This document shows, one piece after another, positions 6,199-25,001 of a stretch of 64,000 bases of DNA; the stretch's first letter is position 1, and every line of letters begins with the position of its first letter. The translations under genes were made by a program, and so were the position numbers. The stretch comes from a bacterium (GTDB lineage: Bacteria > Fidelibacterota > Fidelibacteria > Fidelibacterales > Fidelibacteraceae): NCBI GenBank assembly GCA_963676395.1, contig OY781066.1:704001-768000 (forward strand), written 5' to 3'. The notes under the pieces are model-generated. The model searched no databases. It was given only the letters and a program-made list of their open reading frames with translations, and was not told the DNA's origin.

Positions 6199-7095
6199 AT
6201 GCAAAGAATATTTCAAGATTTCATCTATCACCTCCAGGGTGAACGACAACTGTCTCCCAATACGGTACAATCCTACCGAAAAGATATAAAGCGTTATCTC
6301 GAACATTTTAAAAGCATGGGCATCAAAGATCCAAACCTTATCCAAACCGATATGGTAATCACCTACCTTGATCAATTATCTGGTATTCCCCTGGCCCCAA
6401 CCTCTTTGGCAAGAAATCTCTCTTCCATGAGAATGTTTCATCGATTCATGATGAACGAAGGTTATGTAAGTAAGGATGTTACAGAGAATATCGATTCACC
6501 CAAGCTACCTAAACGCTTACCCAAAATTTTGGATATTGAAGATATCGAAGCGATCTTCACCGAGATCAACACCGATACGGATGCAGGAATTCGCGATAGA
6601 GCCATGCTGGAGCTCTTATATGGCTCCGGGCTGAGAATCTCAGAACTGCTGACACTAAGGTTGCCGGCTGTCATGCTAAACGAAGGCTGGATCCGTGTGT
6701 TTGGCAAAGGTTCCAAAGAAAGGATCGTTCCCTTTGGAGATGAAGCAGGTGTCTGGTTAAAGAAATATATCAAACACGTTCGTCCCATGCTGGCCGGAAG
6801 TATAAAAGCAGAAGATTATATTTTTTTAAATCGCAGTGGGGCACCACTCTCCCGAATGGGCGTTTGGAAGATCATTCAAAAATATGCTCAATTGGCACTT
6901 ATCGACAAACCCGTTTCACCGCATGTTTTCAGGCATTCGTTTGCAACCCACCTTTTAGAAGGCGGTGCCGACTTAAGAGCTGTTCAAGAAATGCTGGGAC
7001 ACTCGGATATTTCAACTACGCAGATCTATACCCATCTTGATAGAAATTATTTAAAAGAAGTTCACAAAACCTTTCACCCAAGGGAAAAACGATAA
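6199..7095 (+). CDS. xerD: Site-specific tyrosine recombinase XerD
   Basis: RDRAMLELLYGSGLRISEL, GKGSKERIVP and SPHVFRHSFATHLLEGGADLRAVQEMLGHSDISTTQIYTH; housekeeping context. Confidence 0.88.
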   Translation: MQRIFQDFIYHLQGERQLSPNTVQSYRKDIKRYLEHFKSMGIKDPNLIQTDMVITYLDQLSGIPLAPTSLARNLSSMRMFHRFMMNEGYVSKDVTENIDSPKLPKRLPKILDIEDIEAIFTEINTDTDAGIRDRAMLELLYGSGLRISELLTLRLPAVMLNEGWIRVFGKGSKERIVPFGDEAGVWLKKYIKHVRPMLAGSIKAEDYIFLNRSGAPLSRMGVWKIIQKYAQLALIDKPVSPHVFRHSFATHLLEGGADLRAVQEMLGHSDISTTQIYTHLDRNYLKEVHKTFHPREKR

Positions 7096-7738: not shown

Positions 7739-8803
7739 ATGAACGATTTTTTAGGTTACAACGAAAAAGATTTCCCTATCACTGAAATGCCCAGCGATGA
7801 TGCTATTCTTGGAAGAGTGATAGAAGAACACCGTGAACGCTACTTTGTCGCAAGCCGGGAAGGTGTTTACGAAGCGGGAGTCACCGGTAGGATCATGTAT
7901 ACATCGGAAAGCAAAGATGCTTTTCCGGCTGTTGGCGATTGGGTGTTACTTTCACCTATGGATGATCATGAGGGCATTATTCATCAAATCATTCCAAGAA
8001 AAACTGTGCTGCGCCGCCGTTCTAAAAGCAAGAAAGCCAAAGAACAGGTTATCGCGGCCAATATCGATACAGCCTTTGTGGTTATGGCCGGCAATGAAGA
8101 TTTTTCACTAAATCGACTTGAGCGCTACCTGACTATCATCTATGATGGTGGTGTAAAACCGGTAATCATCCTGAATAAAACAGATTTATTCAATGAAGAA
8201 GAAGTTCAGGAATTTGTAAATGAAATAAAAAAACGACATCCCGATGCAGAATTGATCTGGACCTCTGCATTAACGGAAAAAGGACTAAAATACATCAAGG
8301 AACACCTGTCTCCCGGAAAGACCTATGGCTTTGTAGGATCTTCAGGTGTGGGAAAATCCTCACTGATCAACCGACTTACCGGGGGTGAACGCCAAAAGGT
8401 CAACCATATTTCAGATGCAACCGATAAAGGACGCCACACTACCACATACCGTGAGTTGATCGAGCTTGAGAACGGGTCATTTCTTATCGACACACCGGGC
8501 ATGCGCGAGGTGGGGCTTTCGGCTACCGATGCCGGTTTAGAAGAAACATTTTCTGATATATATGAACTATCTTATAGCTGCCGTTTCAGTGATTGCACAC
8601 ACACAAATGAACCCGGTTGCGCCGTGCTTCAAGCTGTAAAGAGCGAAACACTTCAACAAGAGAAACTGGATAACTTTCACCACCTGAAACGTGAATCCGA
8701 TTATTACCAGATGGACGATTATGAAAAACGCATGAAAGATAAATCCTTTACAAAAATGGTAAAAGAAGTCAAACGCGTAAGAGGCTTGAAACATAAAAAG
8801 TAA
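7739..8803 (+). CDS. rsgA: Ribosome small subunit-dependent GTPase A
   Basis: Circularly permuted NKTD...GSSGVGKSS...GRHTTT...DTPG plus C-terminal CRFSDCTHTNEPGC zinc finger; ATG at 7739. Confidence 0.93.
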   Translation: MNDFLGYNEKDFPITEMPSDDAILGRVIEEHRERYFVASREGVYEAGVTGRIMYTSESKDAFPAVGDWVLLSPMDDHEGIIHQIIPRKTVLRRRSKSKKAKEQVIAANIDTAFVVMAGNEDFSLNRLERYLTIIYDGGVKPVIILNKTDLFNEEEVQEFVNEIKKRHPDAELIWTSALTEKGLKYIKEHLSPGKTYGFVGSSGVGKSSLINRLTGGERQKVNHISDATDKGRHTTTYRELIELENGSFLIDTPGMREVGLSATDAGLEETFSDIYELSYSCRFSDCTHTNEPGCAVLQAVKSETLQQEKLDNFHHLKRESDYYQMDDYEKRMKDKSFTKMVKEVKRVRGLKHKK

Positions 8804-8954
8804 AATTCGATGAATCGATAGCTCACTCATTTAATTGTTCACTCATTCGACCATTATACTATTCAAAAAATATCCTTTGGAATTCTAAGCGGCTTATCCT
8901 AATTTTATTCAACTTAAATAAATATGACATGATAAATCTTTATGGGGCGACGAA

Positions 8955-9794
8955 ATGGATAAGATCATGGAAGCTTATAGCAATTTATTAACACAAAAAC
9001 GCTACAGTCCCAATACCCAAAAAACATATATGGGATATTTTTCCGATTTCCGAAGATATTTCCGATTTAAAGACATCTATCATATTGGCAAAGATGAAAT
9101 CAATCGATATATCCTAGATCTTATTCAGACAAATAATATTTCTCCGAGTCAGCAAAATCAACGCATTAATGCAATCAAATTCTACTATGAAAAGGTTTTA
9201 GGTCGAGAGAAAGAGTATTATAACATTCAGCGACCAAAAAAAGAATATCATTTACCCAAGGTTCTAAGCAAAAAAGAAATAAAATGCATGATTCAATCAT
9301 GTGAAAACCTTAAACATAAATGTATTTTAATGATACTTTATTCGGCCGGATTAAGGCGTAGTGAATTATTAGATCTACAAATTGACGATATTGATTCCAA
9401 AAGAATGTTAATCTTGATCAAAGGTGCCAAAGGTAACAAAGACAGAATAACACTTTTATCCGAAAGGCTACTTAGCATGCTTCGGGATTACTATAAAAAA
9501 TACAAACCCGAAAAATATTTATTCGAAGGTCAAAGAGGAAATAAGTATTCAGCTTCTAGTGTTGCCAATATTCTTAAACATGCAACCCTCAAGGCAGGGA
9601 TCAGAAAAAATGTTACACCTCATATGCTTAGACATAGTTTTGCCACACATTTACTTGAACAAGGAACTGATTTAAGATATATTCAAGAGTTATTGGGCCA
9701 TAATAGCAGCAAAACAACAGAAATTTACACTCATATATCAAAAAAAACGATTACAAACATACAAAACCCTATGGATGACATGTTTGAAACATAA
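8955..9794 (+). CDS. Tyrosine recombinase/integrase, putative cassette-array integrase
   Basis: SAM-like N-terminus (YSPNTQKTY...SQQNQRINAIKFYY) and intact catalytic residues (GLRRSE, KGNKDR, HMLRH, LLGH, TEIYTH); no IntI-type insertion between KDR and HxLRH. Confidence 0.92.
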   Translation: MDKIMEAYSNLLTQKRYSPNTQKTYMGYFSDFRRYFRFKDIYHIGKDEINRYILDLIQTNNISPSQQNQRINAIKFYYEKVLGREKEYYNIQRPKKEYHLPKVLSKKEIKCMIQSCENLKHKCILMILYSAGLRRSELLDLQIDDIDSKRMLILIKGAKGNKDRITLLSERLLSMLRDYYKKYKPEKYLFEGQRGNKYSASSVANILKHATLKAGIRKNVTPHMLRHSFATHLLEQGTDLRYIQELLGHNSSKTTEIYTHISKKTITNIQNPMDDMFET

Positions 9795-9811
9795 ATGCAA
9801 AATAAACACAA

Positions 9812-9876
9812 TAAACAATACATGCCATATTGGAGATGTATACACAATAGGCATACACTAACGTTGTGCCCAATTA
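9812..9876 (+). other. Putative primary (attI-like) recombination site
   Basis: CATACACTAAC-GTTGTGCCCAAT (9852-9874) resembles the right arm of the repeats but has no full left arm; short hairpin ATGCCATATTG/CAATAGGCAT (9822-9854). Confidence 0.6.
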
Positions 9877-9896
9877 AATGAAAAGACTACATAGTT

Positions 9897-10766
9897 ATGG
9901 AAGAAGAACTTAATTCAGAGATTAAAAAGTTGATTCCAAAAGTGTATGATGATGCATTACAACCATCAGTCATTGAGATTGGCAAATCAATAAAGGAAAC
10001 TGTTAAACTCGCCTTGAAACCCTACAATGGAATAATTTGGTCAATTGATAAATCTTTCGACTGGTTAACAAACACAATATCTCAAAGAGTTGAAAACTAT
10101 AAAATCAAAAAGATAAAAGCTCCGAATATTGAGACCACAATTAAGGTTATTCAGGGAGTACAGACAACAGGAGCACTAAATGATTTTGTTCCAAGACATC
10201 TATTTGCCAATCTATTGTTTTCGGAAATAAATGCAGAATACGGACATGAAACCCATCCAGCTTATGCAGAACTTTTAAAACAATTTACTCAAGAAGAATG
10301 TAAAATTTTATGCGTCATTGCAAATAGACCTTTATCAATATATTCAACAAGTACATTAAGCGATAATTATTTTGACTATAACTACAAGGAGAAAGAAAAA
10401 ATAAGATATAGCAATGAAACTCATGATTTACAAATAAAATGTGGATTTACAGAAACTGCACCTTTAAGTCTTTACATTGACAACTTATTAAGACTAGGTA
10501 TTATAGAAAGACAATCTACCAAACATGATGAAATACCAAGCTCTACAAAAGAAGAAGCATCTGTTTATCATAGAGAACTTAAACTATTTGAGGAATATCA
10601 AAAACGATATAAAAATGATAGTCGTTGTCCAAAAAGTGTAAAAATCAGAATTGATATAATTAAACCAACATATTTTGGTCAAAACTTTTTAGGTGCAATT
10701 GGTGCCAGCCAGTTTTATGACCACTACAGTAATATTTTTATAAAGCCAGATTGGATAAAAGATTAA
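9897..10766 (+). CDS. Abi-alpha (DUF4393)-like protein, cassette 1
   Basis: N-terminal PKVYDDALQPSV.EIGK, LFANLL...HPAYAELLKQ and IDNLLRLGII patterns. Confidence 0.65.
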   Translation: MEEELNSEIKKLIPKVYDDALQPSVIEIGKSIKETVKLALKPYNGIIWSIDKSFDWLTNTISQRVENYKIKKIKAPNIETTIKVIQGVQTTGALNDFVPRHLFANLLFSEINAEYGHETHPAYAELLKQFTQEECKILCVIANRPLSIYSTSTLSDNYFDYNYKEKEKIRYSNETHDLQIKCGFTETAPLSLYIDNLLRLGIIERQSTKHDEIPSSTKEEASVYHRELKLFEEYQKRYKNDSRCPKSVKIRIDIIKPTYFGQNFLGAIGASQFYDHYSNIFIKPDWIKD

Positions 10767-10785
10767 ACCTTTAAAGAAGACTAAT

Positions 10786-11403
10786 ATGTTTTTTAAAACA
10801 CCAAACATCAAGATTGAAAAAATTGGGAATGTCGAAATCAATCCTCATTATCATCCGATTTTTGAAAAAATTGCTTACGATACGTTTCAAAAATTTATAG
10901 AAAAGGAAAACAAGTTACATCAGGTACAATCTTTATCTGACCAAAAGGTTAAAAAAACAAAGTTTTTAAAAACGATTGACCTACTTGGAAAAATCATATC
11001 AATTATTTCGGGTATTGCAATAGTTGTATTTGTGATTTTTTTACTTGCTGGTAAAACATCAATTGGTAGTGTGCAAGTATCAACTCTTTTAACAGTTATT
11101 AGTTTCACTTTGATTGGTGGAATTATTTCTATTGGCGGTGTGCAAATGTTTTCTTTTAATGCCTCGTTGAGAAAGAGTGAAAATAAAATAAGAGAACACC
11201 TAAATCGAAATTTGGAATGTCCCTTTGATAGAATACTAAAAACTGATAACCCAAATTGGCACAATAGACAGCCGGGAAATCCAGATTTTTGTATGCGCTG
11301 TCCATTAGGGATTGATATTTCAGGTAATGTAGAGGGTGGACTAATACATGTTTGTAAAGTATACATGAATTATCATAAAAGGTGGTTAGACAACAAACAA
11401 TAA
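10786..11403 (+). CDS. Hypothetical two-TM protein with Cys-rich C-terminus, cassette 1
   Basis: Two hydrophobic segments; CPF...FCMRCP...HVC; stop codon abuts repeat 1. Confidence 0.6.
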   Translation: MFFKTPNIKIEKIGNVEINPHYHPIFEKIAYDTFQKFIEKENKLHQVQSLSDQKVKKTKFLKTIDLLGKIISIISGIAIVVFVIFLLAGKTSIGSVQVSTLLTVISFTLIGGIISIGGVQMFSFNASLRKSENKIREHLNRNLECPFDRILKTDNPNWHNRQPGNPDFCMRCPLGIDISGNVEGGLIHVCKVYMNYHKRWLDNKQ

Positions 11404-11546
11404 CTGGGCACAACATTTTGTATAAGTAATGGCAGGCGATGTAGTAAATATCAATGTTTGTAGCGCGCTCAAACTGCGTAGCGGTTTGACAGGAAACTAC
11501 CACGCAATCTGCCACTACTCATACAATTTACCGTTGTGTGTAATGC
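11401..11546 (+). repeat. attC-like cassette site, copy 1
   Basis: TAACTGGGCACAAC...TTGTATAAGTAATGGCAG...CTGCCACTACTCATACAA...GTTGTGTGTAATGC. Confidence 0.9.
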
Positions 11547-11562
11547 AAAAAAAAGACAGTAC

Positions 11563-14328
11563 ATGAAATTTAAAACCCAACATTTAAGAAATATTATAGA
11601 TGCTAACAATGATAATCGATTAGCGATTTTTGTTGGAGCTGGAGTTTCAAAAAATTCTGAAACTAAAGGACTAAAACTTCCAATATGGCAGGATTTAATT
11701 GATGATTTGAAGAAAGATTTAGAATTAACAAGTGAGACAGACTTTTTAAAAATAGCACAACTTTATTATCTGGAATTTAAAGAGTATTCATATCTTAAAA
11801 AACTAAAAAAATATTTTCCTGATAACATAAGACCTTCTTCAATACACAAACAAATATTTGATTTAAATCCTCAAGTAATTATTACAACTAATTGGGATAC
11901 AATTCTTGAGAAAACGATAGAAGAAAATGCATATATCTATGATGTAATTCGTTGTGATGAAGATTTAGTTAAATCCACAATTCAAAAGAAAGTGATTAAA
12001 ATGCATGGAGATTTTAAAAATCACAATATAGTTTTCAAAGAAGATGATTACTTGAATTATCAATATAATTTTCCATTAATCGAAAATTACGTAAAAAGCA
12101 TTTTGTCTACTCACACTGTACTTTTTTTTGGTTATTCATATAATGATATCGATTTCAAACAAATAATGAAATGGTTGCAAAATTATTCAAAAGTACAACC
12201 GCCAAGATATTTAACTGTCTTTTATGAAAATTCAACACAAAATAAGTATTTAGAAAATCATGGAATAACCACATTTGTGCTTGATGAACCCAATAGTTCA
12301 ATGAATCTTCAAAGCGACTATACTGAGAATACAAAGTATTTCTTAGATTTAATAAAAGATGATGAAAGAATTAACTTCTTAAAAACTGAGAATGACATTA
12401 TCGATTTTGTTTTCAATAAATTAAAGGTGCTTTCTGAACTCAATGGTATTTTAATTGAGCAAATACAAACCTCATTGACTAATTGTGGTTTTCTGTATGA
12501 TGATAGCAATAAAACAATATTGGAATTTCGAGATAAAATACTCACATATGACTTAAATAAAGAAAAGAGAAATATATATAAGGAATTTGTAAAAATACTA
12601 AACGCGCAAGACGATAAAGGATTATCAAACAAAACTTTATATAGTATTTTTGAAATTTTAAGTAAAGCCAATATACAAGGAATTGTTATCACTGAAGACG
12701 ACTTATCAACTAGAGAAAAGAAATATATAGTTCTAGATGATTATTTAACAGATAAAGAATTCAATCTTGAATCAAAGTACCTTGATTTTGATTTTTCATT
12801 TGAGGACAAATCAACAAATGATATTTATGAATTGCTTCAAAAATCATTCATTTTATATCAGCTTGAAGATTACGAAAAAGCATATGAGATTGTTGAAAAA
12901 ACAATAATACAGTGTTTAAAGCAAAAAAATTATACTGTTTTATTTATTTCAATGTTTAATAAAAATGTTCTTCTCTGGAAATTGAAATATGGCTTTTTTC
13001 AAAATAGAAAAGTATATGAAGATATTGAAGAATATAATTTAGAAGAGAAGTTTAATCAGCTTCCAAAAGATTTACAAGGAGCACTTAAGCCAATTTACAA
13101 CTTCTTAAACTCTTGTTATTTATATATATTTGCATATAGAATATCAGAAGAATTAAATAAAAAAGAGGGATCTAAAAAAACTATAGAATCTGGTGGTTTT
13201 GTTTTAAATTCTAATATTACCGAATCTTCTTCAAAGCATAAAAATCTAATTTCATTTATACTCCGCAACGGAATAATTTTAGAAGGGAGAAGCGAATTTC
13301 AAAGTATCAATAAATATTTCCTGAAAATTTCTATTATAAGACAGGTTCAGAATAAAGCAACTACATTTAACGAAATAGAGTTTTTTTCAGCGATAAAGTA
13401 TCTTTCGAATAAAGAATTAAAACATTTACTATCTGAATTTTACAAATATGATTCTGACAAAAAGGGCAAATTTGAAATTTCAGAAGAAAATAAAAATTGG
13501 TTAATTAATAAGGTGTTGATAAATCTTGTAAAAAGATATATAAACTCCGACAATGCGTTTAATACATTTGAAAAATACTTAGAAAATACAATCTTCTTAC
13601 TTTCATTAACAAAACTATCAGATGATGAAATTTCAAAAATTTTAGAAAGCTTTAATAACATTATCGATAAAGCTAAAAACACAATTGGAATTTACGAATC
13701 AATAAATCTTTTCTTGGGAAACCAATATAATCTTCATAATACATCCATTAATGAAAGTTCATTACTTAATTTGATAAAATCTATCATTAATAAATTTGTA
13801 AGCAAGCAATATAATGGATACGATTTTCATGCAATTACACGCAATGAAATTTCGAATTTATATGGTTATGCAAGAGAACAAAAAGCAATATTTAAAGAAA
13901 AAGCATTGATTAATAAATTAATTGATGCATCAAAAGAACTACCAATAGAAGAACAATTAAATATTTCAGAATCTCTTCTTCTTAGTATTTATGATATTTC
14001 TACTGATGAAATTAAGACCAAAATTAAAGAATATATTTTGAGCATAAAATCAAGTGAAACAAAAGAAAAACATGATTATTTAATATTTGAGCTCATCTTA
14101 GTTATTCGTGATTTTAAAAATTTAGAAACAGATTTAATCAAAGAGCTTGAAGAATATTTTGAACCATATAAAGACTCAAAGTCATTTTCTTCAATTTGGT
14201 ATTCAATAGATAGTCAGATAGATTATTTAATAAAAGAAAAGCAACTAACTCAGCTCAAAGAAGTTTCTTCAACGATAAAAACGTTAATAGAAAACTTTAA
14301 GAAAAGTGAAAGATTTTCAATACTTTAA
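11563..14328 (+). CDS. SIR2-domain NADase, DSR2-like defence protein, cassette 2
   Basis: FVGAGVS, ITTNWD, KMHGD and KEDDYLNY..NFPLI...THTVLFFGYS, plus long helical C-terminus; ATG at 11563 because the GTG at 11536 lies in the repeat. Confidence 0.82.
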   Translation: MKFKTQHLRNIIDANNDNRLAIFVGAGVSKNSETKGLKLPIWQDLIDDLKKDLELTSETDFLKIAQLYYLEFKEYSYLKKLKKYFPDNIRPSSIHKQIFDLNPQVIITTNWDTILEKTIEENAYIYDVIRCDEDLVKSTIQKKVIKMHGDFKNHNIVFKEDDYLNYQYNFPLIENYVKSILSTHTVLFFGYSYNDIDFKQIMKWLQNYSKVQPPRYLTVFYENSTQNKYLENHGITTFVLDEPNSSMNLQSDYTENTKYFLDLIKDDERINFLKTENDIIDFVFNKLKVLSELNGILIEQIQTSLTNCGFLYDDSNKTILEFRDKILTYDLNKEKRNIYKEFVKILNAQDDKGLSNKTLYSIFEILSKANIQGIVITEDDLSTREKKYIVLDDYLTDKEFNLESKYLDFDFSFEDKSTNDIYELLQKSFILYQLEDYEKAYEIVEKTIIQCLKQKNYTVLFISMFNKNVLLWKLKYGFFQNRKVYEDIEEYNLEEKFNQLPKDLQGALKPIYNFLNSCYLYIFAYRISEELNKKEGSKKTIESGGFVLNSNITESSSKHKNLISFILRNGIILEGRSEFQSINKYFLKISIIRQVQNKATTFNEIEFFSAIKYLSNKELKHLLSEFYKYDSDKKGKFEISEENKNWLINKVLINLVKRYINSDNAFNTFEKYLENTIFLLSLTKLSDDEISKILESFNNIIDKAKNTIGIYESINLFLGNQYNLHNTSINESSLLNLIKSIINKFVSKQYNGYDFHAITRNEISNLYGYAREQKAIFKEKALINKLIDASKELPIEEQLNISESLLLSIYDISTDEIKTKIKEYILSIKSSETKEKHDYLIFELILVIRDFKNLETDLIKELEEYFEPYKDSKSFSSIWYSIDSQIDYLIKEKQLTQLKEVSSTIKTLIENFKKSERFSIL

Positions 14329-14339
14329 TGTGAAAGAAA

Positions 14340-14485
14340 GCACTACACACAACATTTTGTATAAGTAATGGCAGACAATGTGGTAAATATCAAGGTTTGT
14401 AACCCGCTCCAACTGCGTAGCTGTTTGACAGGGAAGTGCTACGCAATCTGCCACTACTCATACAATTTACCGTTGGCTGCAATTG
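14340..14485 (+). repeat. attC-like cassette site, copy 2
   Basis: GCACTACACACAAC...same stem as copy 1...GTTGGCTGCAATTG. Confidence 0.9.
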
Positions 14486-14504
14486 AAATGAAACTCATCA
14501 CAAC

Positions 14505-15671
14505 ATGAAAATAAATAAACTTAGACTTGAAGGTGTTGGAGGAATAGAATTTATTGAATTAATTTTCAATAGCCAGATGAATCTTTTCTGTGGCCCTAAT
14601 GGAATTGGCAAGACAACAATTCTCGAATCCATAGCACACATTTTTTCAAATGGTCGAACGAACATTTTAAAACGGAATGTAAATAGTGCAAACAGCAAGA
14701 TTTGGATTCAAATTGATGATAGTGGACAAACAAAAGAGAAAGAAATTCATTTTGATACATTTGTGCCTGAAGTTCCAACAGAAATTAGACAAGCACTAAA
14801 TCAATACTCAAATCAAATTCTATCTTTAAAAACTAGTAGGATTTTTCAATACCAGTCATTGCAAGCCGTTAATAAAGATTCTTTAAAGGAAACACATTTG
14901 ATTTGGAATGATGCTATCAATGGCATTCAATTAGCCGATGTGAAAAACTGGTTTGTAAATAGATATTTATACTCAGCACATCCAGGAGCTTTAACAGAAG
15001 AACAACTTGCGAATTATGAATTAGCAAAATCTTGTTTTTCATTTTTAAATGAAGAGTTTTCTTTTTCAAAGGTTGATGCCTCTTCAAATGAAATTATGGT
15101 CAGTACTCCAAGTGGTACAATTTATTATGAATATTTATCATCTGGTTTTAAATCAATAATCTCAATATTATTTGGAATAATAAAGGAAATTGAATTTAGA
15201 TTTACTAATCCAAGAATAAAAGCTGTTGATTTTGAGGGGATAATTCTAATTGATGAAATAGAACTTCACTTACATCCAGAGTGGCAAGAAAAGGTTGCAA
15301 GTGTACTCTTAAAGGCATTTCCAAAAGCCCAGTTTTTTGCAACAACTCATAGTCCACATATCATTCAGACAGCGTTACCAAATCAAATAATTGCCTTGGA
15401 GGCAAGTGATAAGAAAACAATCCAGAGAGAGCTTCCTGATACTGAATTTGGATTTCAAGGATGGACAATAGAAGAAGTATTAACTGATGTAATGGGAATG
15501 AAAGATACTAGGACCGAATTATTTAATCTGCTTATGTACGATTTTCAGATAAATATAGATAAAGAAAATTATGAAGGTGCATTAAAGATATTTGAAACTG
15601 TAGATTCTTTATTGCATCCTCACAACGAACTTAGAAAACTTTTAAAATTTCAACTCGCTGGAATTAAATAG
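14505..15671 (+). CDS. ABC/AAA ATPase, PtuA (Septu)-like, cassette 3
   Basis: Walker A GPNGIGKT, signature LSSGFK, Walker B ILIDEIELHLHPEWQ and TTHSPH. Confidence 0.8.
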   Translation: MKINKLRLEGVGGIEFIELIFNSQMNLFCGPNGIGKTTILESIAHIFSNGRTNILKRNVNSANSKIWIQIDDSGQTKEKEIHFDTFVPEVPTEIRQALNQYSNQILSLKTSRIFQYQSLQAVNKDSLKETHLIWNDAINGIQLADVKNWFVNRYLYSAHPGALTEEQLANYELAKSCFSFLNEEFSFSKVDASSNEIMVSTPSGTIYYEYLSSGFKSIISILFGIIKEIEFRFTNPRIKAVDFEGIILIDEIELHLHPEWQEKVASVLLKAFPKAQFFATTHSPHIIQTALPNQIIALEASDKKTIQRELPDTEFGFQGWTIEEVLTDVMGMKDTRTELFNLLMYDFQINIDKENYEGALKIFETVDSLLHPHNELRKLLKFQLAGIK

Positions 15672-15678
15672 AAATTAA

Positions 15679-16422
15679 ATGATTAAGCTTAATAGACTTT
15701 TTACACCTCTCGGATTATCTCCAGCTTTTATTAAAGCACAAACACTTGAATTTAAAACAAATGGAACAAATGTATGGAATGTTAACTGGTTAAAAGAATC
15801 GCTACTACAGTTAAGTTTTCAAAAATGTGCCTATTGTGAATGTTCTTTGAGCGTTGAAAGTAATTATATGGAAGTTGAGCATTTTGAAGACAAAAGTGAT
15901 TACCCAGATAAAGTTTTAATTTGGGAAAACCTTATTCCTTCTTGCAAGAAATGTAATGGTTCGAAAAGTACTCACGATGTAAATAAAGAACCAATTGTTA
16001 ATCCATTTATCGATAATCCCTCTGATGAATTTTATTTTAGATTATACAAGATAAAAGGAATTAAAGAAAAGGGTATTCGAACAGAATCCATATTAAATTT
16101 AAATCACCCTGAAAGAGCAATAAAAAAACGATTTGAAATTGGTGAAGCCTTAGAAAACTTAATTGAACAAGCATTTGAACGGTTGATTAATTTTGAGGAA
16201 AGTTCAACCGTACTTCGAAGAAACAAGCTAAATAATATTGTTGAAGAAATTCTACAAGAGAGTCAACCTGAATCTATATATTCTGCAACTTGTGCAACAA
16301 TTCTTCATTCATGTTTGAGATATAATGAAATCAAGATAAAAATGGAAAAATTAGGTTTATGGACTTCAGAATTTGATAATTTACATGAAAAATCGAAAGA
16401 AATTGTACTAGAAATGAAATAA
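15679..16422 (+). CDS. HNH endonuclease, PtuB (Septu)-like, cassette 3
   Basis: KCAYCE...EVEHF...WENLIPSCKKCN..K; directly after the ATPase. Confidence 0.8.
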   Translation: MIKLNRLFTPLGLSPAFIKAQTLEFKTNGTNVWNVNWLKESLLQLSFQKCAYCECSLSVESNYMEVEHFEDKSDYPDKVLIWENLIPSCKKCNGSKSTHDVNKEPIVNPFIDNPSDEFYFRLYKIKGIKEKGIRTESILNLNHPERAIKKRFEIGEALENLIEQAFERLINFEESSTVLRRNKLNNIVEEILQESQPESIYSATCATILHSCLRYNEIKIKMEKLGLWTSEFDNLHEKSKEIVLEMK

Positions 16423-16566
16423 CAACTGCTGCCAACAATGTATATACAAAATAGGCGAGATAGTAGTAAATTCAAGGGTTGTAGCCCGCTTCAAAATTGT
16501 GACGGTTTGACAAGTTTGAAGCCCGCAATCGCCTACTTTGCATATACTTACCGTTGGCAACAATAC
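16423..16566 (+). repeat. attC-like cassette site, copy 3
   Basis: CAACTGCTGCCAAC-AAT-GTATATACAAAATAGGCGA...TCGCCTACTTTGCATATAC-TTACC-GTTGGCAACAATAC. Confidence 0.9.
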
Positions 16567-16598
16567 AGGACACACCTCAGTTGTAAAGATTATGAAAT

Positions 16599-19115
16599 AT
16601 GATTGAAAAGAAAATTGACAAATCTATTCTCCTTGATGATTTGGAGCTATTTAAATATTTAAAGGATAATGATAGTGAATTCGTATCGTTAATTGATGAT
16701 ATAAATGCCAAAGTTAAGAACCTGCTCAATAGTGGTATACCAAAAGTATTTTCATCATACACCTTACATGACATTGAACATTCATATCGGATAATAAAGT
16801 ATATGAGTGACATTATTCCTGATATTTCAAAATTAAATGAACTTGAAATTACTATTCTGATACTTGTTGGATTGTTGCATGATGTTGGAATGGCTGTGTC
16901 CACAGAGGATTTAGAGTTAATTAAAAATGATAATTACCCTCATTTTGATGTGAAGTTTTCTGCAACTAAAAAATATGTTGGAGGTGATGAAAACTTAGCA
17001 TTGCAGGAATATATAAGAATGTATCATGCTCAAATGTCGGGAATATACATTGAAGAAAAGTTAAAAGACAAGCTGAAAATTTCTGAAAACTCTACCTTAT
17101 CTTTCATGGATGATGTTATTAAAATCTGTAGAAGTCATACTGAGTCATATGAATGGATTAAGCAAAATTTGAATCCGTACACTGTATTAGGTGATTATGA
17201 ATACAATTCCTTATATATTTCTCACTTATTGAGACTTGGAGACATCCTAGATATTGATGAAAAAAGAACTCCTTTAAGCTTGTATAACTTGATAGCTCCT
17301 AAAGGTAAAAGTGAAGAGGAATGGGATAAGCATTTCATAATTCAAAATTATGAGAAAATTGAAATAAATCCGAAATCAAAATTAAAGCAGATTGCTTTTC
17401 ATGGTCATTGTTCTAACGCACATATACACCGTAAATTACTAGAATTTTTTGATTGGGTTAATGAGGAACTTTTGAATGCATTAGCATCAACGAATAATAT
17501 GCAAGAGCAGTATAGGCTAAATCTCGAAAATTCAATCCTTCAAAATATTGTAACCGAGGGCTACACATTTTCTGATTATAAAATGAAACTCGATTTTGAA
17601 GCAATTAGTTCTTTATTGATGGGGGAAAAAATATATGGAGGAAAAGAACTAGGATTAAGGGAGCTTATTCAAAATTCGATAGATGCATGCCGATATAGGA
17701 CAGAATTAGAAAACATAGGAAAAGAATTTGGCGAAATAGATTATGAGCCTAAAATAAAAGTTATTGTAGACAGTAAAAACCAGATTATTTCAATAAAGGA
17801 TAATGGGGTAGGTATGTCAATTGGTGTAATAAAGAATCACTTCTTGAATATTGGCAAATCTTATTATAATTCATCCGAATTCTTGTTGCAAGATGTCGAG
17901 TATAAACCAATAGGAAATTTTGGAATTGGGTTCCTTGCATGCTTTATGTTATCTAATAATATTAAAGTAGTGACTAGATATTATAATAGCCAAGACAAAT
18001 ATATTATTGAACTTGAAAAAGGAAACGAATTTACATCTATGTTGAAATCAAATGACGTAAGATTTGAAGGGACGGAAGTTGTTTTTAATCATGATGAATT
18101 TATGAGTGTTTTCAATGATAAAATTGAAGATATATCAAATTTTCTGAAAAAATATTTTATTACTGATGGCATTGAATTAGAACTTATAAATGTAGATAAG
18201 AAAGAACGGATTTCTATCGAAAATAAATTTGACAAAAACATAACACCAGATAAAGGATTTCTAATTGATTTAAGTTCTTATTTAAAGGAAATAGAAGGCT
18301 ATGCGATTGTTAAACACCGCAATAGCTTTATTCACACTTTAGATGATATTGGCTTTGAAGGTGAACTTTATTTTTATGATTATGAAAAGGGATTATATGA
18401 AGTAGAGGATTTATCGAAAGTTGATATTGATTTTTATATACTTAACAATAGAATTAGATATTTCAATATTCCATTAGTTGAAAATGAAAATGTATCTGAT
18501 TACCTCAATGGTTTAAGATATACTGATGATGATGTATCAGAAGTAATTGATAAAATGGTCAATGACTTAAGATGGATTTCTATACTCCCTCAAAGAGATA
18601 CTGATTCAATGATGTCTGACCAAATTATAGATAATGGAGATACTTTTTTTGACAATTTAGAGTTCAGCGACTTAGTAAAATTAGGTCACGATGACACATG
18701 TAAAACAAAGATGTTTGAGAAAGAGCAAAATATATTTGAAGGAGAAAAAAGTAACTTATATATGCCTTTTGAGCAAAAAGAAGACAATTACTGGAGATAC
18801 TATTATAGAAAAAAAGAAAAACAAAATTTGTATGTAAGAAATGTTTTAATCAAGGACTTTGATTTTTCTTTTAATACTAAAGCATCCATTTTTGACATAA
18901 ATGATGTAATAGTCAATGTACAATCAAAAAAAGTTGTTCCTGATATTTCTAGAAATAATTTGGATTCAGAAACAGAAAATAGACTTAACTATTCGATAAG
19001 CAGAGCAATTCATATTGGATTACTTAATAGTGAAAAATTGTTAGATAATGAAAGAGAAACTCTTAAGTTATTTATTGATGAGTTTTATACTGACAAAACT
19101 GAATTTGATAAATAA
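16599..19115 (+). CDS. HD-CE domain plus HSP90-like GHKL ATPase, cassette 4
   Basis: YTLHDIEHS..LLHDVGM..LRLGDILD HD motifs; LRELIQNSIDA, DNGVGM and GNFGIGFLACFM GHKL motifs. Confidence 0.8.
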   Translation: MIEKKIDKSILLDDLELFKYLKDNDSEFVSLIDDINAKVKNLLNSGIPKVFSSYTLHDIEHSYRIIKYMSDIIPDISKLNELEITILILVGLLHDVGMAVSTEDLELIKNDNYPHFDVKFSATKKYVGGDENLALQEYIRMYHAQMSGIYIEEKLKDKLKISENSTLSFMDDVIKICRSHTESYEWIKQNLNPYTVLGDYEYNSLYISHLLRLGDILDIDEKRTPLSLYNLIAPKGKSEEEWDKHFIIQNYEKIEINPKSKLKQIAFHGHCSNAHIHRKLLEFFDWVNEELLNALASTNNMQEQYRLNLENSILQNIVTEGYTFSDYKMKLDFEAISSLLMGEKIYGGKELGLRELIQNSIDACRYRTELENIGKEFGEIDYEPKIKVIVDSKNQIISIKDNGVGMSIGVIKNHFLNIGKSYYNSSEFLLQDVEYKPIGNFGIGFLACFMLSNNIKVVTRYYNSQDKYIIELEKGNEFTSMLKSNDVRFEGTEVVFNHDEFMSVFNDKIEDISNFLKKYFITDGIELELINVDKKERISIENKFDKNITPDKGFLIDLSSYLKEIEGYAIVKHRNSFIHTLDDIGFEGELYFYDYEKGLYEVEDLSKVDIDFYILNNRIRYFNIPLVENENVSDYLNGLRYTDDDVSEVIDKMVNDLRWISILPQRDTDSMMSDQIIDNGDTFFDNLEFSDLVKLGHDDTCKTKMFEKEQNIFEGEKSNLYMPFEQKEDNYWRYYYRKKEKQNLYVRNVLIKDFDFSFNTKASIFDINDVIVNVQSKKVVPDISRNNLDSETENRLNYSISRAIHIGLLNSEKLLDNERETLKLFIDEFYTDKTEFDK

Positions 19116-19260
19116 GTACTGTTGGCAACAATGTGTATAGTGCATAAGGGTTTCAGAGGTTTTCGAGCATTATCACCCACATCAATTTTGGGTGGTAACT
19201 TGACAGGTTTGAAGCCCGCAACCCCTTACGACACCATACACTCAACGTTAGCGGTAATTT
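19116..19260 (+). repeat. attC-like cassette site, copy 4
   Basis: GTACTGTTGGCAAC-AAT-GTGTATAGTGCATAAGGG...CCCTTACGACACCATACAC-TCAAC-GTTAGCGGTAATTT. Confidence 0.9.
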
Positions 19261-19295
19261 AAACTCCAGAAATTGGACCTAATAACATCAAAATT

Positions 19296-19985
19296 TTGAA
19301 AGAAAAAGACACATGCTGTTACTGTGGTAAGAACTCTGAGTCAAGAGACCATATCCCATCCAAAAATTTATTGGAAAAACCATTTCCAGATAATTTATTA
19401 ACAGTACCGTCTTGCATAAAGTGTAATCAATCATTTTCATTAGACGAAGAATATTTTCTAAATGTATTAGTTGAGATTTCAAACAATCCGACTTTAATCG
19501 CAAAAAAAGAGCCTAACGGTAATGTTTATAAAGCACGAAAGCGGTCAAAAAAATTAAATGATAGAATTGAAAATTCATTGATTCAGTTAGAAGATGGAAA
19601 AATCTATTTTAGAATGGAAGAAAACAGAATTAAAAAAGTTATAGAGAAAAATGCACTTGGACTCTACTTCCATAAATACCATAAACTTGCTAACCTGAAT
19701 AAATTTAATTGTACTGGATTCTATCCGTTTTCAGTTGAAGAAACAAGACCTGCAGAAATTTTCATGTTGACTTATTCTGAAAAATTTAGAGCCAAAAGAT
19801 GGACAACAATTCAAGAGAATGTTTTTTCATATATAGTTGTACGAGATTGGAGGAGAGGAAAAAAATTGACAATGATTTTTCATATTCATAACACAGTATG
19901 GTGTATTATTGAAATTCCATTTCCAACATCAACGAAAAGATTAAAAAGACAAAAGAATTCTCATACTGAAAAAATAAATTTATGA
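19296..19985 (+). CDS. HNH-like endonuclease
   Basis: CCYCG...RDHIPSK...TVPSCIKCN; TTG start. Confidence 0.7.
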   Translation: MKEKDTCCYCGKNSESRDHIPSKNLLEKPFPDNLLTVPSCIKCNQSFSLDEEYFLNVLVEISNNPTLIAKKEPNGNVYKARKRSKKLNDRIENSLIQLEDGKIYFRMEENRIKKVIEKNALGLYFHKYHKLANLNKFNCTGFYPFSVEETRPAEIFMLTYSEKFRAKRWTTIQENVFSYIVVRDWRRGKKLTMIFHIHNTVWCIIEIPFPTSTKRLKRQKNSHTEKINL

Positions 19986-20398
19986 ATAAACCACAAAAAT
20001 ACATTATTTCATTTCTACCTGCTGCAATATTTTTGTTCAACCAAATATTGATAATGTTTATTCGACCGATTATTCCTGCCAATAGATTTGAGTTACTATC
20101 AGAAATATTTGGTTGGTTACCCAACTATTTAGCTTCAGTCGGATTTGTTCTTATGAGTATGCTCCTATTAATAATTATAAAGGAATTAAAGCTGGATAAA
20201 AAGTACGCACGTTATTATAATATATATATGATTTTTATATCAGTGATTGCATTATTTGGTTTTATATGGTGGGAAAATCAACAGAAAAACAACTCGATGA
20301 TATATGATTTAAAAGATATTTATGCAACAGTTTGCGGCGTTATTACTGGATATTCAATATTTTTAATATTATACTTTAAACATAAATTCAACAACTAA
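19982..20398 (+). CDS. Hypothetical four-TM membrane protein
   Basis: Four hydrophobic segments; WLPNYLA and D..D..AT..G patterns. Confidence 0.6.
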   Translation: MNKPQKYIISFLPAAIFLFNQILIMFIRPIIPANRFELLSEIFGWLPNYLASVGFVLMSMLLLIIIKELKLDKKYARYYNIYMIFISVIALFGFIWWENQQKNNSMIYDLKDIYATVCGVITGYSIFLILYFKHKFNN

Positions 20399-20448
20399 AA
20401 GATATTAATTCTGATAAATTAACGAACAAGTTGACTTTAAATGACAAA

Positions 20449-20593
20449 CACCAGCATACAACAATGTGTATAATTCATAAGGGTTTCAGAGGTTTTCGAT
20501 CGGTTTCACCCGAATCAATTTTGGGTGGTAACTTGATAAGTTTGAAGCCCACAATCCCTTACGAAATCATACACTTAACGTTAGCGTGTATTA
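20449..20593 (+). repeat. attC-like cassette site, copy 5
   Basis: Core highly similar to copy 4: ATACAAC-AAT-GTGTATAATTCATAAGGG...CCCTTACGAAATCATACAC-TTAAC-GTTAGCGTG. Confidence 0.88.
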
Positions 20594-20645
20594 CCACAAC
20601 AGAGACATAGATCGCAAAGTTTCTTTATAGGAATATTTAGCTAAA

Positions 20646-21089
20646 ATGAGAATTGAGAAAATTATCAATAACAAAAAGAAATACCTTGATTTATTGCTGT
20701 TAGCGGATGAGTCAGAGGATATGATTGACAGATATTTGGAAAGTGGAGATATGTTTGCACTATTCGATGATGACGTTAAAACTGTTTGTGTTGTTGCTGC
20801 AATAGATAAAGAAACTTGCGAATTGAAAAACATAGCAACTTATGAGAAATATCAAGGTAGAGGATATGCTAAAGCATTAATAAATTATATTTCTAATTTT
20901 TACAAAAACGATTATAAAACAATGCAACTCGGAACAGGCGATATCCCAGCAATTTTGTCATTTTATGAAAATTGCGGATTCAAAATATCACATCGATTAA
21001 AGAATTTTTTTACTGACAATTATGACCATCCAATGTTTGAAGACGGAATACAGCTTATAGATATGGTTTATCTAAAGAAAAAATTATAA
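20646..21089 (+). CDS. GNAT family acetyltransferase
   Basis: [15 protein letters not shown]...YQGRGYAK and FYENCGF motifs. Confidence 0.88.
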
Positions 21090-21105
21090 TAGCTAAATTA
21101 TTAAG

Positions 21106-21285
21106 ATGAAATCCATTGATGTAAAACAAGCAATAGATAGTGATGTCGAAAGAACAACCCGGTTATTTTATGATACAATTCAGAATGTCAATATAAGGGA
21201 TTATTCCCAGGAAGAGGTTGACGATTGGTCATCATGGAAAACTGATACAAATAAGTGCTTGGATAAAATGAAATTGAGAAATTAA
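21106..21285 (+). pseudogene. Truncated YafP-like GNAT (N-terminal 59 aa)
   Basis: Manual translation MKSIDVKQAIDSDVERTTRLFYDTIQNVNIRDYSQEEVDDWS... stops before the acetyl-CoA motif. Confidence 0.6.
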
Positions 21286-21340
21286 TTAATGAATATTCAA
21301 AAAATTAAATTACCGGCATAACAGGTGAACTATATAAGAC

Positions 21341-22339
21341 ATGAGATTACAAATAAAACATAAAGAATTGAAGAGATTGAAAAAAAGAACAGGATTTACC
21401 ATTACTATTTTTGTTGCAATTATGAATGTTATTACAATACATGCGCAAACCAGGTCACTTAAAGAAACTGATTTAATTTGTTCAAATAATGAAAAACCTC
21501 ATGTCGCATTTTCTTTTGATGATGGTTCAACAAAAGACAAACTTACTTACAAAAATTCGGAATGGAATTCGATGATACGAAAACAACTGAAGGATAATCA
21601 TATTCAAGCAGTTTGGTTTGTTGCGGCAAAAGGAATGGATAACGACAAAGGTAAACAGTTGTTGGAAAAGTGGAACAAAGATGGCCATCTGATCGCAAAT
21701 CACACGTATAGCCATTTCAATTACAATGATTCTTTAATGACTTGTAAAGCATATACCAAAGATATACTGAAATGCGATTCATTGATAAGCAGTTATACAA
21801 ATTATAAAAAAATAGTTCGCTTTCCGTATTTAAACGGAGGTAACACTATCTCGAAACGAGACAGCTTGCTTGATTTTCTTCAACAAAATGATTATCGGCA
21901 AGGATGGGTAACTATTGATAATTGTGAATGGTATATAAATATGAGATTGATGAATCGTTTAAAAGAAAATCCTGATGCCGATTTTAGTGGATTTGGAGCG
22001 TATTACGTTAATCATATTTTCGAAATGGCACAACATTACAATAAGCTTTCAACTCAGATTAATCAACGGCAAATAACACACTCTCTCTTATTGCATTTCA
22101 ATCTGACTTCAGCACTGTTTTTAAATGATTTGATTGAAAAATTCAGAAAAGAAGGATGGATAATTGATAATTACAGCGAAGCAATGAATGACCCGGTTTA
22201 TTCAGGTCAACCTATTGCAATACCATCCGAACAAAGTATAATTTGGATGCAAGCAAAGCAAAAAGGTGGATTTGAATTAGATTACGATGAAGAAAACATC
22301 AAACATCAGGAAGACAAAATGGCTAAATTGGGATTATAA
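21341..22339 (+). CDS. Polysaccharide deacetylase (NodB-like)
   Basis: FSFDDG, IANHTYSH, RFPYL and LLLH motifs; start uncertain. Confidence 0.85.
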   Translation: MRLQIKHKELKRLKKRTGFTITIFVAIMNVITIHAQTRSLKETDLICSNNEKPHVAFSFDDGSTKDKLTYKNSEWNSMIRKQLKDNHIQAVWFVAAKGMDNDKGKQLLEKWNKDGHLIANHTYSHFNYNDSLMTCKAYTKDILKCDSLISSYTNYKKIVRFPYLNGGNTISKRDSLLDFLQQNDYRQGWVTIDNCEWYINMRLMNRLKENPDADFSGFGAYYVNHIFEMAQHYNKLSTQINQRQITHSLLLHFNLTSALFLNDLIEKFRKEGWIIDNYSEAMNDPVYSGQPIAIPSEQSIIWMQAKQKGGFELDYDEENIKHQEDKMAKLGL

Positions 22340-22356
22340 AAATTACTCCCAATACT

Positions 22357-22656
22357 ATGCTTGATTTCGGATCATCACAAAATCCATTGGTAACAAGTGT
22401 ACATCATCAATCAGTAAAGAAAACAGGGGAAAATTTCCGGGTAATTGCAACGTCATTAGATAGAAAAGTCGTAGAAGCTATTGCCAATACAAAATTTAAG
22501 AATGTTTACGGCGTTCAGTTTCATCCGGAGTTTTCAACTTTATATAAACAGAAAGAGTTTAGAAATTCAAAAAACAATATTGTTTCATTTAACGATAATG
22601 ATAAACAATTTCTTAAACATTTTTGGAAAGATTTCAGTTTAAGATTATATGCTTAA
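22357..22656 (+). pseudogene. C-terminal fragment of peptidase C26 / gamma-glutamyl hydrolase
   Basis: VTSVHHQSV...VEAI...GVQFHPE present; nucleophile-containing N-terminal half absent. Confidence 0.7.
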
Positions 22657-22757
22657 AAAACAAAGAAAACGATGGGCATGTCCATCATGTGGTGGTGTCG
22701 TTTATTTTTATCATTACAGATGTAGTAAATGTGATAAAACTGTAGATGTGTGATTTT

Positions 22758-22915
22758 CCACATCGCCTAACAGCGAATATGCTCTACGGCTTCGCCTTGG
22801 CCTTCTTCAAATTAACCCTTTGAATATTTTCTAAAAAATTATGATATTACTCTATAGAATATATTCACACCCACAAAGGGCTGAGTTTACTTCATATTTT
22901 CGTTAACGGCAATTA
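22758..22915 (+). repeat. Divergent attC-like site, copy 6
   Basis: GCCTAAC (22765-71)..GAATATG...CATATTTTC-GTTAACGGCAAT (GTT at 22902); interior unrelated to copies 1-5. Confidence 0.55.
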
Positions 22916-22931
22916 AACAAGAGAGACAAAC

Positions 22932-24113: not shown

Positions 24114-24205
24114 CATTTTGTTTAAGCAAAAGCCGGGAAATACCGCACACTCCAACAATTTACTGTTGATAGCAAGTGCAGCAGAGCCACAGAGTACTTA
24201 AACAA
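24101..24205 (+). repeat. Degenerate attC-like site, copy 7 (right GTT core lost)
   Basis: AAACTGCCGCTAAC-ATT-TTGTTTAAG ... CTTAAACAA. Confidence 0.55.
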
Positions 24206-24225
24206 CCACTAAAAAAGATTAAAAT

Positions 24226-24900
24226 ATGGGATACTATATTAACTTAGAAAAAATATCAATTGATGATTATCGGATAAAATTAGAATCAGCTTATCTGCCA
24301 CCGAGCAGACTGATCCTTAAGGACAAATTGGATGAACGATTTGGATATTTTAAGAGCATTGGAATTAAAAATGTTAAAGAATTGATACAGATACTCAAAA
24401 AAAAGGACAAAATAGCTGAACTATCAAAAGTTGATTGTTTATCGGGTGATTATTTGAAAATATTGCTTAGAGAATTAAACAGTACACTACCAAAACCTAA
24501 TAAGTTTGCCGATTTTACTGGAATTTCACAAGAAACAGTTGATAAACTAAAAAATATTGGCATAAAAAATACAGCGAAATTGTATGATAAAGTTTTAACA
24601 AAATCAGACCGGCAAAAGCTTACTGAGGCAACAGGCATAGCTGACAAAGAGATTTTAGAATTGACTAAATTGACAGATTTATCAAGAATTAAATGGGTTG
24701 GAGTGACGTTTGCCAGAATGCTTTACGATTTAAAAATAGATACAGTGGAAAAAGCATCAAAATCTGACCCGGTCAATTTACATTCAATGATAAACCAATT
24801 AAATAAGGAAAAAAGCATTTATAAAGGACAAATTGGATTGAACGACATTAAAATATTCGTGAATGCCGCAAAAGAAATACCTTTGGAGATAGAATATTAA
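24226..24900 (+). CDS. DUF4332-like helix-hairpin-helix protein
   Basis: KLKNIGIKNT...DLSRIKWVGVTFARMLYD..IDTV pattern. Confidence 0.7.
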   Translation: MGYYINLEKISIDDYRIKLESAYLPPSRLILKDKLDERFGYFKSIGIKNVKELIQILKKKDKIAELSKVDCLSGDYLKILLRELNSTLPKPNKFADFTGISQETVDKLKNIGIKNTAKLYDKVLTKSDRQKLTEATGIADKEILELTKLTDLSRIKWVGVTFARMLYDLKIDTVEKASKSDPVNLHSMINQLNKEKSIYKGQIGLNDIKIFVNAAKEIPLEIEY

Positions 24901-24975
24901 TAAATAAACAAAAAATTATGCACACCCTCATACCTTACTTGCAATATACTCAACATTAAATAAGCAAATCTCTTT

Positions 24976-25001
24976 AAACTTCTGCCAACATTTTAACCGT
25001 T
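24976..25001 (+). repeat. Collapsed terminal site remnant
   Basis: AAACTTCTGCCAAC-ATTTT-AACCGTT: left end ACT-N6-AAC joined almost directly to the ACCGTT right end. Confidence 0.45.

Follow-up and report, generated by a model that had tools for sequence, protein, structure and literature searches.

The region considered here lies within a stretch of 64,000 nucleotides (nt) from a bacterium of the family Fidelibacteraceae (assembly GCA_963676395.1, contig OY781066.1, positions 704,001 to 768,000 of the forward strand), referred to below as the window; coordinates are those of the window unless another source is named. Between positions 8955 and 24178 it probably harbours an integron-like gene-capture platform, composed of a Xer-type recombinase gene, an attI-like site and a series of co-oriented cassettes with hairpin sites, in which the two ends of a cassette pair in its circular form and recombination would take place on a folded DNA strand. 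Four of the cassettes had been picked out by a sequence-only reading of the window, according to which the 14 nt at the start of each are the reverse complement of the 14 nt at its end; the outer stem would be complete only in an excised circle, and the cassettes would be mobile units integrated at or next to G|TT.

Cassette ends pair with their own partner

The eight 14-mers are present at 9863/11401, 11533/14340, 14472/16423 and 16553/19116 (start/end of cassettes 1 to 4), and their Watson-Crick scores of 13, 13, 12 and 12 out of 14 were reproduced. When G.T pairs on the bottom strand are allowed, these scores become 14, 14, 13 and 13. The constant mismatch is found at position 11 from the G of GTT, where an A in the start faces a C in the end, that is, A.C on the top strand and T.G on the bottom strand. 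Agreement between both ends of a single repeat copy is poorer, as had been noticed, with 8, 8, 10, 6 and 5 of 14 for the successive copies; copy 3 is the closest at 10/14, and only 1/6 of the N6 of copy 4 agrees. In a matrix of five ends against six starts, the four proposed pairs occupy the top four of the 30 cells while the other 26 score 4-10, an outcome with a probability of 1 in 27,405 on ranks only. The cassette boundaries that had been predicted from a G|TT crossover (9864-11533, 11534-14472, 14473-16553 and 16554-19247) are correctly derived.

This pairing rule is general. A covariance model was built from a seed alignment of 15 sites taken from the source genome and two other genomes, and was run against the window, three other arrays and 68 loci containing homologues of the recombinase, nearly all of them from Bacteroidota. 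It returned 110 matches, 102 of which do not overlap and stem from 72 sources, mostly Bacteroidota arrays adjoining recombinase homologues. Pairing in these 102 sites was scored at 11 variable positions. Adjacent sites bounding the same cassette reach at least 9/11 in 49 of 67 cases (mean 9.21), compared with 8 of 102 for the two ends of the same repeat (mean 6.02), 26 of 325 for other pairs within an array (mean 5.91) and 585 of 9910 for pairs between loci (mean 5.65). Shuffled pairings in this larger set thus score below the true cassette pairs, and the same-cassette excess is highly significant in Mann-Whitney tests (p = 2e-15 and 3e-21).

The extent of the pairing was followed position by position in the 86 sites that have AAC/GTT ends, which provide 55 pairs. 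Watson-Crick pairing within the same cassette amounts to 0.82-0.93 at positions 4-9 and 12-13, to 0.62 at position 10 and to 0.69 at position 14. At position 11, 89% of the same-cassette pairs show the wobble, T.G on the bottom strand. From position 15 on, pairing is at background, so that the length of 14 nt claimed for the ends is exact, the cassette-linked portion spanning +4 to +14. Identical end pairs occur in cassette 2 of the window and in a cassette of different size at another locus (L032). Since ends can match between different cassettes, the repertoire of these barcodes is limited and chance matches are therefore possible.

The predicted circular form and probable movement of cassettes

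Circularising cassettes 1 to 4 in silico at G|TT stabilises the folded bottom strand in each case, from -24.1 to -31.2, -22.1 to -31.6, -28.8 to -29.9 and -19.3 to -22.8 kcal/mol, respectively, and no such gain is obtained when the starts are borrowed from other cassettes. Of the 55 cassettes examined in the larger set, 49 gain stability as circles (mean -4.86 kcal/mol), as against 22 of 55 in a control with random starts (mean +0.58 kcal/mol).

One and the same cassette can also be seen with different neighbours. A 269-nt cassette is present with 96-98% identity in two arrays of one Bacteroidales genome, as a single copy in one of them and as a tandem pair in the other (L030:12219-12899 and L036:13149-13417). 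The identity between the copies begins with CCGTT and ends with CGTT, and includes the cassette's own hairpin site. Together with circle folding, the bounds of the pairing and the contig breaks described below, this supports the view of the sequence-only reading that the cassettes are mobile and their outer stem complete only in the circle; its placement of the crossover at G|TT could only be bracketed, as discussed with the points of difficulty.

At L036, an insertion sequence (IS) encoding a 518-aa DDE transposase (DUF772 + DDE_Tnp_1_6) is present in two copies (L036:14522-17116 and L036:17914-19760), each of which interrupts a hairpin site of its own at the GT of GTT; the junction sequence is identical in both cases. 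Recurrent junctions of a similar kind come after three sites in L065/L066 and after one in L067. The element gives the impression of an IS that has the crossover point of the sites as its target.

Hairpin sites: structure and strand

The cassettes are separated by five repeats of about 145 nt, all on the minus strand with respect to the site model: site 1 at 11401-11546 (both 14-mers included; 135.3 bits), site 2 at 14340-14485 (137.7 bits), site 3 at 16423-16566 (153.3 bits), site 4 at 19116-19260 (108 bits) and site 5 at 20449-20593 (109.8 bits), which belongs to repeat family D2 and is 84% identical to site 4. All five give a more stable fold as the bottom strand than as the top strand, by 2.6-4.0 kcal/mol; the calculated energies, bottom and top, are -24.1 and -21.0 for site 1, -22.1 and -18.1 for site 2, -28.8 and -26.2 for site 3, and -19.3 and -15.6 kcal/mol for site 4. 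The same asymmetry is seen in 71 of 86 sites of the larger set, with a mean of 2.78 kcal/mol.

The fold derived from the seed alignment is a two-tier hairpin of 23 pairs, 12 of which have changed in a compensatory manner, and three pairs are invariably G.T. Among the 110 aligned matches, 92.5% of the cells are paired compared with 67% after shuffling and 34-46% with slid partners, figures that are flattered by an alignment fitted to the model. In this model-fitted alignment 19 of the 23 pairs change on both sides, and G.U is retained in 96 and 97 sequences at two pairs. AAC...GTT ends are present in 86 of the 102 sites. With these ends and with the compensatory changes in their stems, the sites conform to what is expected of attC-type elements, namely an imperfect inverted repeat with AAC/GTT ends in which structure is conserved above sequence. 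They depart from attC in their consensus inner stem, which lacks a conserved single-base bulge and hence the extrahelical bases; a few individual sites have one extra base. In place of extrahelical bases, there are the conserved G.T wobbles and an asymmetric internal loop of 4-5 x 2 nt. A scan of positions 8500-26000 against Rfam at E <= 1 gave no match, but Rfam may hold no attC model.

The large loop is itself conserved: the motifs GTAAAT(A)TCAAGG, TTGTAGCCCGC and GGTTTGAYA recur across orders (11440-11500, 14380-14440 and 16460-16520 in the window, and equivalent places elsewhere), and might serve as protein-binding sites or promoter elements. In the array at 1.83 Mb of the source genome, one site (L001:7773-7917, genome positions 1833773-1833917) is chimeric, its left half resembling window site 3 and its right half site 1, and its two arms now match poorly. 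This suggests recombination inside the conserved central loop.

The four arrays of the source genome lie at 0.71, 1.10, 1.13 and 1.83 Mb, and the cumulative GC skew is lowest at 1.19 Mb and highest at 0.04 Mb. The coding (top) strand of all four arrays is on the C-rich strand. By the usual skew rule, lagging-strand synthesis would have the bottom strand as its template in 4/4 arrays, the origin being only loosely placed because dnaA, at 0.97 Mb, is 0.22 Mb away from the minimum of the skew.

The recombinase and its link to the arrays

The gene that heads the array (8955-9794, plus strand, in the same orientation as the cassettes) encodes a Xer-like tyrosine recombinase of 279 aa, the candidate catalyst of cassette exchange. 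Its Pfam matches are Phage_integrase (1.9e-44, covering positions 1-170 of the 172 of the catalytic domain) and Phage_int_SAM_4. With the NCBIfam model XerA_Arch / 'integron integrase' it scores 237.9 bits, above the cut-off of 220, whereas it remains below the cut-off of 265 with the IntI model TIGR02249 (209.8 bits, in two stretches). The IntI profile covers it only at profile positions 4-181 and 239-315, so that positions 182-238 are skipped, and in the alignment to VchIntIA (2a3v) 67 IntI residues stand opposite 24 residues of the recombinase. By comparison, the XerA structure in PDB (4a8e) aligns from end to end with 155.9 bits. The protein thus lacks the IntI-specific insertion by which the integrase of a classical integron, or of one accepted by IntegronFinder, is recognised. 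A profile search of the source genome (95% complete, 2.34 Mb) revealed no IntI above cut-off.

It does not look like a housekeeping recombinase devoted to dimer resolution at a single dif site either: its gene is the third Xer-like gene of the source genome, is patchily distributed and heads arrays. A second tyrosine recombinase (6199-7095, 298 aa, XerD-like by its Pfam domains) is encoded 1.9 kb upstream of the array recombinase, and the genes between the two are those of an M50 peptidase and of the rsgA GTPase. In a Bacteroidales relative (L036:9347-10804) the homologous recombinase has 485 aa and is extended at its N-terminus by about 200 aa, for which Pfam gives no match at E <= 0.001.

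Recombinase gene and sites are linked. Among the homologue loci with at least 2 kb of downstream sequence, 19 of 34 have co-oriented sites downstream, and none of 58 has sites in the same direction upstream. At 4 of the 58 loci, all of more distant homologues, there are divergent arrays upstream, an arrangement that corresponds to the classical integron geometry. At the level of genomes, 151 members of the phylum were sampled; sites are present in 68 of them (31 of 60 genera) and the recombinase in 42. Sites accompany the recombinase in 30 of these 42 genomes, and 38 of the 109 genomes that lack the recombinase have sites (odds ratio 4.7, p = 1e-4, for genomes that are not independent in kinship and drafts that are fragmented). 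Within the genus, 4 of 21 genomes have the recombinase; one of these relatives carries a single, different cassette and the other loci end at a contig edge.

The attI-like site

The recombinase gene is followed by an attI-like site (9795-9865, plus strand), in which 69 nt separate the first GTT, whose G is at 9863, from the stop codon. It contains two 8-nt direct repeats, ACACAATA, at 9806-9813 and 9842-9849, and its spacer ends in CATACACTAAC|GTT, similar to the 3' end of the repeats. An ending of the form ...ACAC(N)AACGTT is common to the relatives, some of which have clear inverted repeats at this position. In the window, the site model gives a weak match at 9818-9876 (E 7.9). A complementary partner of the left flank of attI that would mark the end of the array was sought in the window, and no credible match was found.

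Contigs of relatives carry a further trace of this site. When a recombinase-bearing contig stops no more than 150 nt past the gene, it stops 0-3 nt after the attI GTT in 8 of 10 cases (L004, L006, L012, L023, L077, L078, L079 and L080). This suggests that one attI is joined to differing first cassettes in the sampled population, which would be why the assembly graph breaks at this GTT.

A proposed mechanism for cassette exchange

The following scheme would account for these features. Cassettes would be exchanged by site-specific recombination, presumably catalysed by the 279-aa recombinase, at the conserved C-GTT that forms the 3' end of each site, and the bases after the crossover (TT and 11 more) would consequently be carried along by the downstream cassette. 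Once this is excised as a circle, the bases carried along would rejoin the site of their own cassette and pair with the 14 nt preceding it, thereby closing an outer stem of 14 bp, in effect an extended R box. Selection on the circular form would keep the start and the end of a cassette complementary. In the chromosome, a site would be closed by a foreign and poorly matching partner, which is why the ends would take on the appearance of cassette-specific barcodes.

By analogy with integrons, the substrate is most likely the folded bottom strand. Strand choice may be set by the conserved G.T wobbles, which are A.C on the top strand, and by the asymmetric internal loop, rather than by extrahelical bases. 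A wobble-coded choice of strand fits a recombinase that is devoid of the IntI segment by which extrahelical bases are held.

Difficulties and alternative explanations

Several observations weigh against the platform as outlined. Three further arrays in the source genome have no adjoining recombinase, and 38 of the 109 sampled genomes without a recombinase match nevertheless carry sites. Among adjacent site pairs, 18 of 67 remain below 9/11; inspection by eye revealed a one-base bulge in five pairs (L015) and an IS insertion (L036), and in some others a site was probably missed in a long gap. Cassette 5 (19248-20580), which was not on the list of the sequence-only reading, pairs at 5/14 only, or 7/14 with wobbles; circularisation brings it no gain (-17.1 against -17.6 kcal/mol), and no partner for its end was found at a site-like place anywhere in the genome with up to 2 mismatches. 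The attI-like site folds weakly (-6.9 kcal/mol) and makes an unconvincing hairpin. Finally, one of the three copies of the 269-nt cassette differs at -3/-2 (TC instead of AA), at the tandem junction, which could mean that the cut lies a few bases 5' of GTT or that a central region was exchanged. Position 4 being the first base linked to the cassette, the crossover is placed within about -3 to +3 of GTT and not to the nucleotide, because GTT and the preceding C are invariant; that it falls exactly at G|TT is suggested by the analogy with integrons. An attempt to narrow it down through the association of spacer positions -2/-3 with their own or the next repeat was uninformative, since repeat subtypes are shared within arrays.

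With respect to cassette 5, its start (19247) pairs 13/14 with an end at 24101 and exactly with the end 14-mer of another array (genome position 1139600). A start at 22902 likewise pairs 13/14, G.T included, with the end at 24101.

A variant of the scheme, conceivable but in our opinion rather doubtful, has the ends act in cis on single-stranded array DNA. A Xer-type monomer would need a duplex R box at each GTT. As the flanks of a site pair with each other at chance (6.0/11), this R box could be built only by the two ends of one cassette; pairing of start and end across the cassette body would then lead to the self-addressed excision of a single unit, and the released circle would offer a perfect 14-bp R box for re-insertion. 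Combined with a wobble-coded choice of strand and a recombinase devoid of the IntI domain, this would amount to a second, distinct integron mechanism, and such a cis-pairing system could resemble an ancestral state in the passage from Xer to IntI.

Alternatively, the system might be the same but operate on double-stranded DNA in the manner of Xer at dif, with two staggered strand exchanges over a short central region and with hairpins and wobbles that are incidental. We regard this as unlikely. The recombinase is indeed closest to XerA and XerC/D, which are enzymes of duplex sites, the attI-like site resembles a duplex site, and the difference at -3/-2 in the shared cassette could be the footprint of a heteroduplex in the central region. 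Incidental hairpins would, however, be difficult to reconcile with stems whose sequence varies while pairing is held by compensatory changes, with the better folding of the bottom strand in most sites, or with cassette ends that co-evolve to pair mutually. Moreover, the wobbles are conserved as G.T on one strand only, which is meaningless in a duplex.

It is less probable still that the arrays are ordinary integron remnants, i.e. attC-site clusters that have no integron integrase (CALINs), left behind by a lost or distant canonical IntI, with the Xer-like gene as a bystander. In favour of this, a neighbouring recombinase is lacking in three of the four arrays of the source genome, many genomes have sites but no detected recombinase, and the AAC...GTT ends and hairpin design are integron-like. 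A bystander gene would, on the other hand, hardly head arrays in a fixed geometry in many genera, nor would contigs break exactly at the GTT of its attI. The lack of an IntI above cut-off in a genome that is 95% complete and of a conserved extrahelical base in the consensus site also speaks against it, and almost no IntI is reported for Bacteroidetes proper in the IntegronFinder survey (PMC9024848).

Two further explanations can be given very little weight. Although inverted 14-mers formally bound every cassette, transposon-like units with terminal inverted repeats of their own would need conserved ends for their transposase, whereas here the repeats vary from cassette to cassette, no transposase is found by Pfam within the cassettes, target-site duplications are absent, and the hairpin site lies on one side only, travels with the shared cassette and has a GTT/AAC that is invariant and common to the units. 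Pairing between the 5' and 3' ends of a cassette transcript, for stability or termination, is equally hard to credit: both ends would be transcribed and the repeats are intergenic, where terminators sit, but the conserved non-Watson-Crick positions are A.C in the sense strand and can pair only in antisense, the pairing ends exactly 14 nt away from the invariant GTT/AAC irrespective of where the open reading frames (ORFs) lie, and contig breaks and the boundaries of the shared cassette fall at this same GTT.

Cassette cargo and the end of the array

The cassettes are all encoded on the plus strand. Cassette 1 (9864-11533) contains an Abi_alpha protein (PADLOC candidate PDC-S47) and a 205-aa membrane protein in addition to its hairpin site. 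Cassette 2 (11534-14472) encodes a 930-aa SIR2-like protein (Pfam SIR2_2, 8.7e-24) with a ThsA-like N-terminal part (PADLOC ThsA, 3.7e-30), and cassette 3 (14473-16553) the Septu defence pair PtuA/PtuB (PADLOC, 517 bits over the full length and 292 bits, respectively). Cassette 4 (16554-19247) carries the gene of an 838-aa protein with HD-CE (Pfam, 4.3e-50) and HATPase_c_3 domains, for which PADLOC gave no match. Phage-defence genes are thus present in at least three of the first four cassettes. The cassette 4 protein was found in 0 of 21 genomes of the same genus; among 400 other genomes sampled from the phylum, a single one has it, with 34% identity, which leaves no possibility for a comparison of neighbours. 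Cassette 5 (19248-20580), whose ends do not pair, encodes a 229-aa Cys-rich protein and a 138-aa membrane protein.

Beyond it lies a partly decayed tail of the array (20581-24178, plus strand) in which Pfam recognises a GNAT protein, a GNAT fragment, a polysaccharide deacetylase, a GATase fragment and an S51 peptidase. Two sites lie within this tail, a weak one at 22758-22915 (site model E 5.7 with filters off) and a short one of 78 nt at 24101-24178 (E 0.011). Two additional candidates obtained with filters off, at 22340-22399 and 24976-25069, were not accepted, their E values being about 1.

In the recombinase-less array at 1.83 Mb of the source genome, the leading gene encodes a 362-aa TIR-domain protein (L001:13652-14740), and a further site (L001:13516-13650) separates it from a 275-aa ORF without Pfam match.

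Relation to known systems

In integrons, the crossover in GTTRRRY takes place between its G and its TT, and what follows the crossover in the core site is derived from the downstream cassette (PMC3518468). The logic of matching ends is therefore not new in principle; it is how the integron crossover was originally placed. As in integrons, a recombinase gene and an attI-like site are accompanied by one-directional, promoter-poor cassettes whose hairpin sites have AAC/GTT ends and fold better on the bottom strand. Again as in integrons, the start of a cassette is complementary to its own end, and to its own inverse core, because the post-crossover part of a site belongs to the next cassette; the crossover itself is here placed to within about -3 to +3. 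Phage-defence cargo is likewise shared with chromosomal integrons (10.1101/2024.07.02.601686). Unlike the integron integrases, the recombinase described here lacks the IntI insertion and is co-oriented with the cassettes, although it is divergent in some relatives. The arm borne by the cassette contributes 11-13 nt to an outer stem of 14 bp, compared with 6 nt of a 7-bp box in integrons; G.T wobbles and an internal loop replace the conserved extrahelical base, and the central loop carries conserved motifs. The host phylum differs from those of known integrons as well.

CALINs are defined by the canonical attC model and by the absence of IntI (PMC9024848). They have in common with the present system arrays without an adjoining recombinase, of which there are three here and many in the phylum sample. 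In the source genome, however, one array has a candidate recombinase that could act in trans, and the sites were found with a model of their own.

XerA and XerC-XerD are the closest sequence relatives of the recombinase, and share with it the simple two-domain architecture without an arm-binding domain. Each replicon has one duplex dif site on which Xer enzymes act, a reaction exploited by integrative mobile elements exploiting Xer (IMEX); the recombinase considered here is by contrast accessory and heads arrays of structured sites. Insertion sequences that target attC and group IIC-attC introns are known from integrons, and the DDE element of L036 (DUF772 / DDE_Tnp_1) resembles the former in that it sits in hairpin sites; its transposase belongs to a family different from that of the IS1111-attC group. 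Smyshlyaev et al. (2021; PMC8138268) reported that the insertion is not fully conserved in an 'integron-like subgroup' of simple tyrosine recombinases, so relatives without it had already been seen at the protein level; the account of this subgroup in that paper describes no cassette arrays or sites for the insertion-less members.

In surveys, integrases are selected by the extra domain of IntI (PMC2426708, PMC9024848), as a result of which Bacteroidota have been described as nearly or wholly free of integrons: IntegronFinder 2.0 lists only In0 elements and one complete integron for Bacteroidetes proper (PMC9024848), and a 2024 preprint counts Bacteroidota among the clades in which integrons were not found earlier (10.1101/2024.07.02.601686). 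No description of arrays such as these was found in the literature searched.

If the platform is active, these arrays would represent a large reservoir of mobile cassettes, here mostly of phage-defence genes, that is invisible to standard tools. The IntI domain would then not be required for the recombination of cassettes at hairpin sites, and the self-complementary 14-bp ends would provide a computational way to delimit cassettes, to pair orphan ends and to detect rearrangements. The evolution of integron integrases from Xer recombinases would, in that case, become open to experiment.

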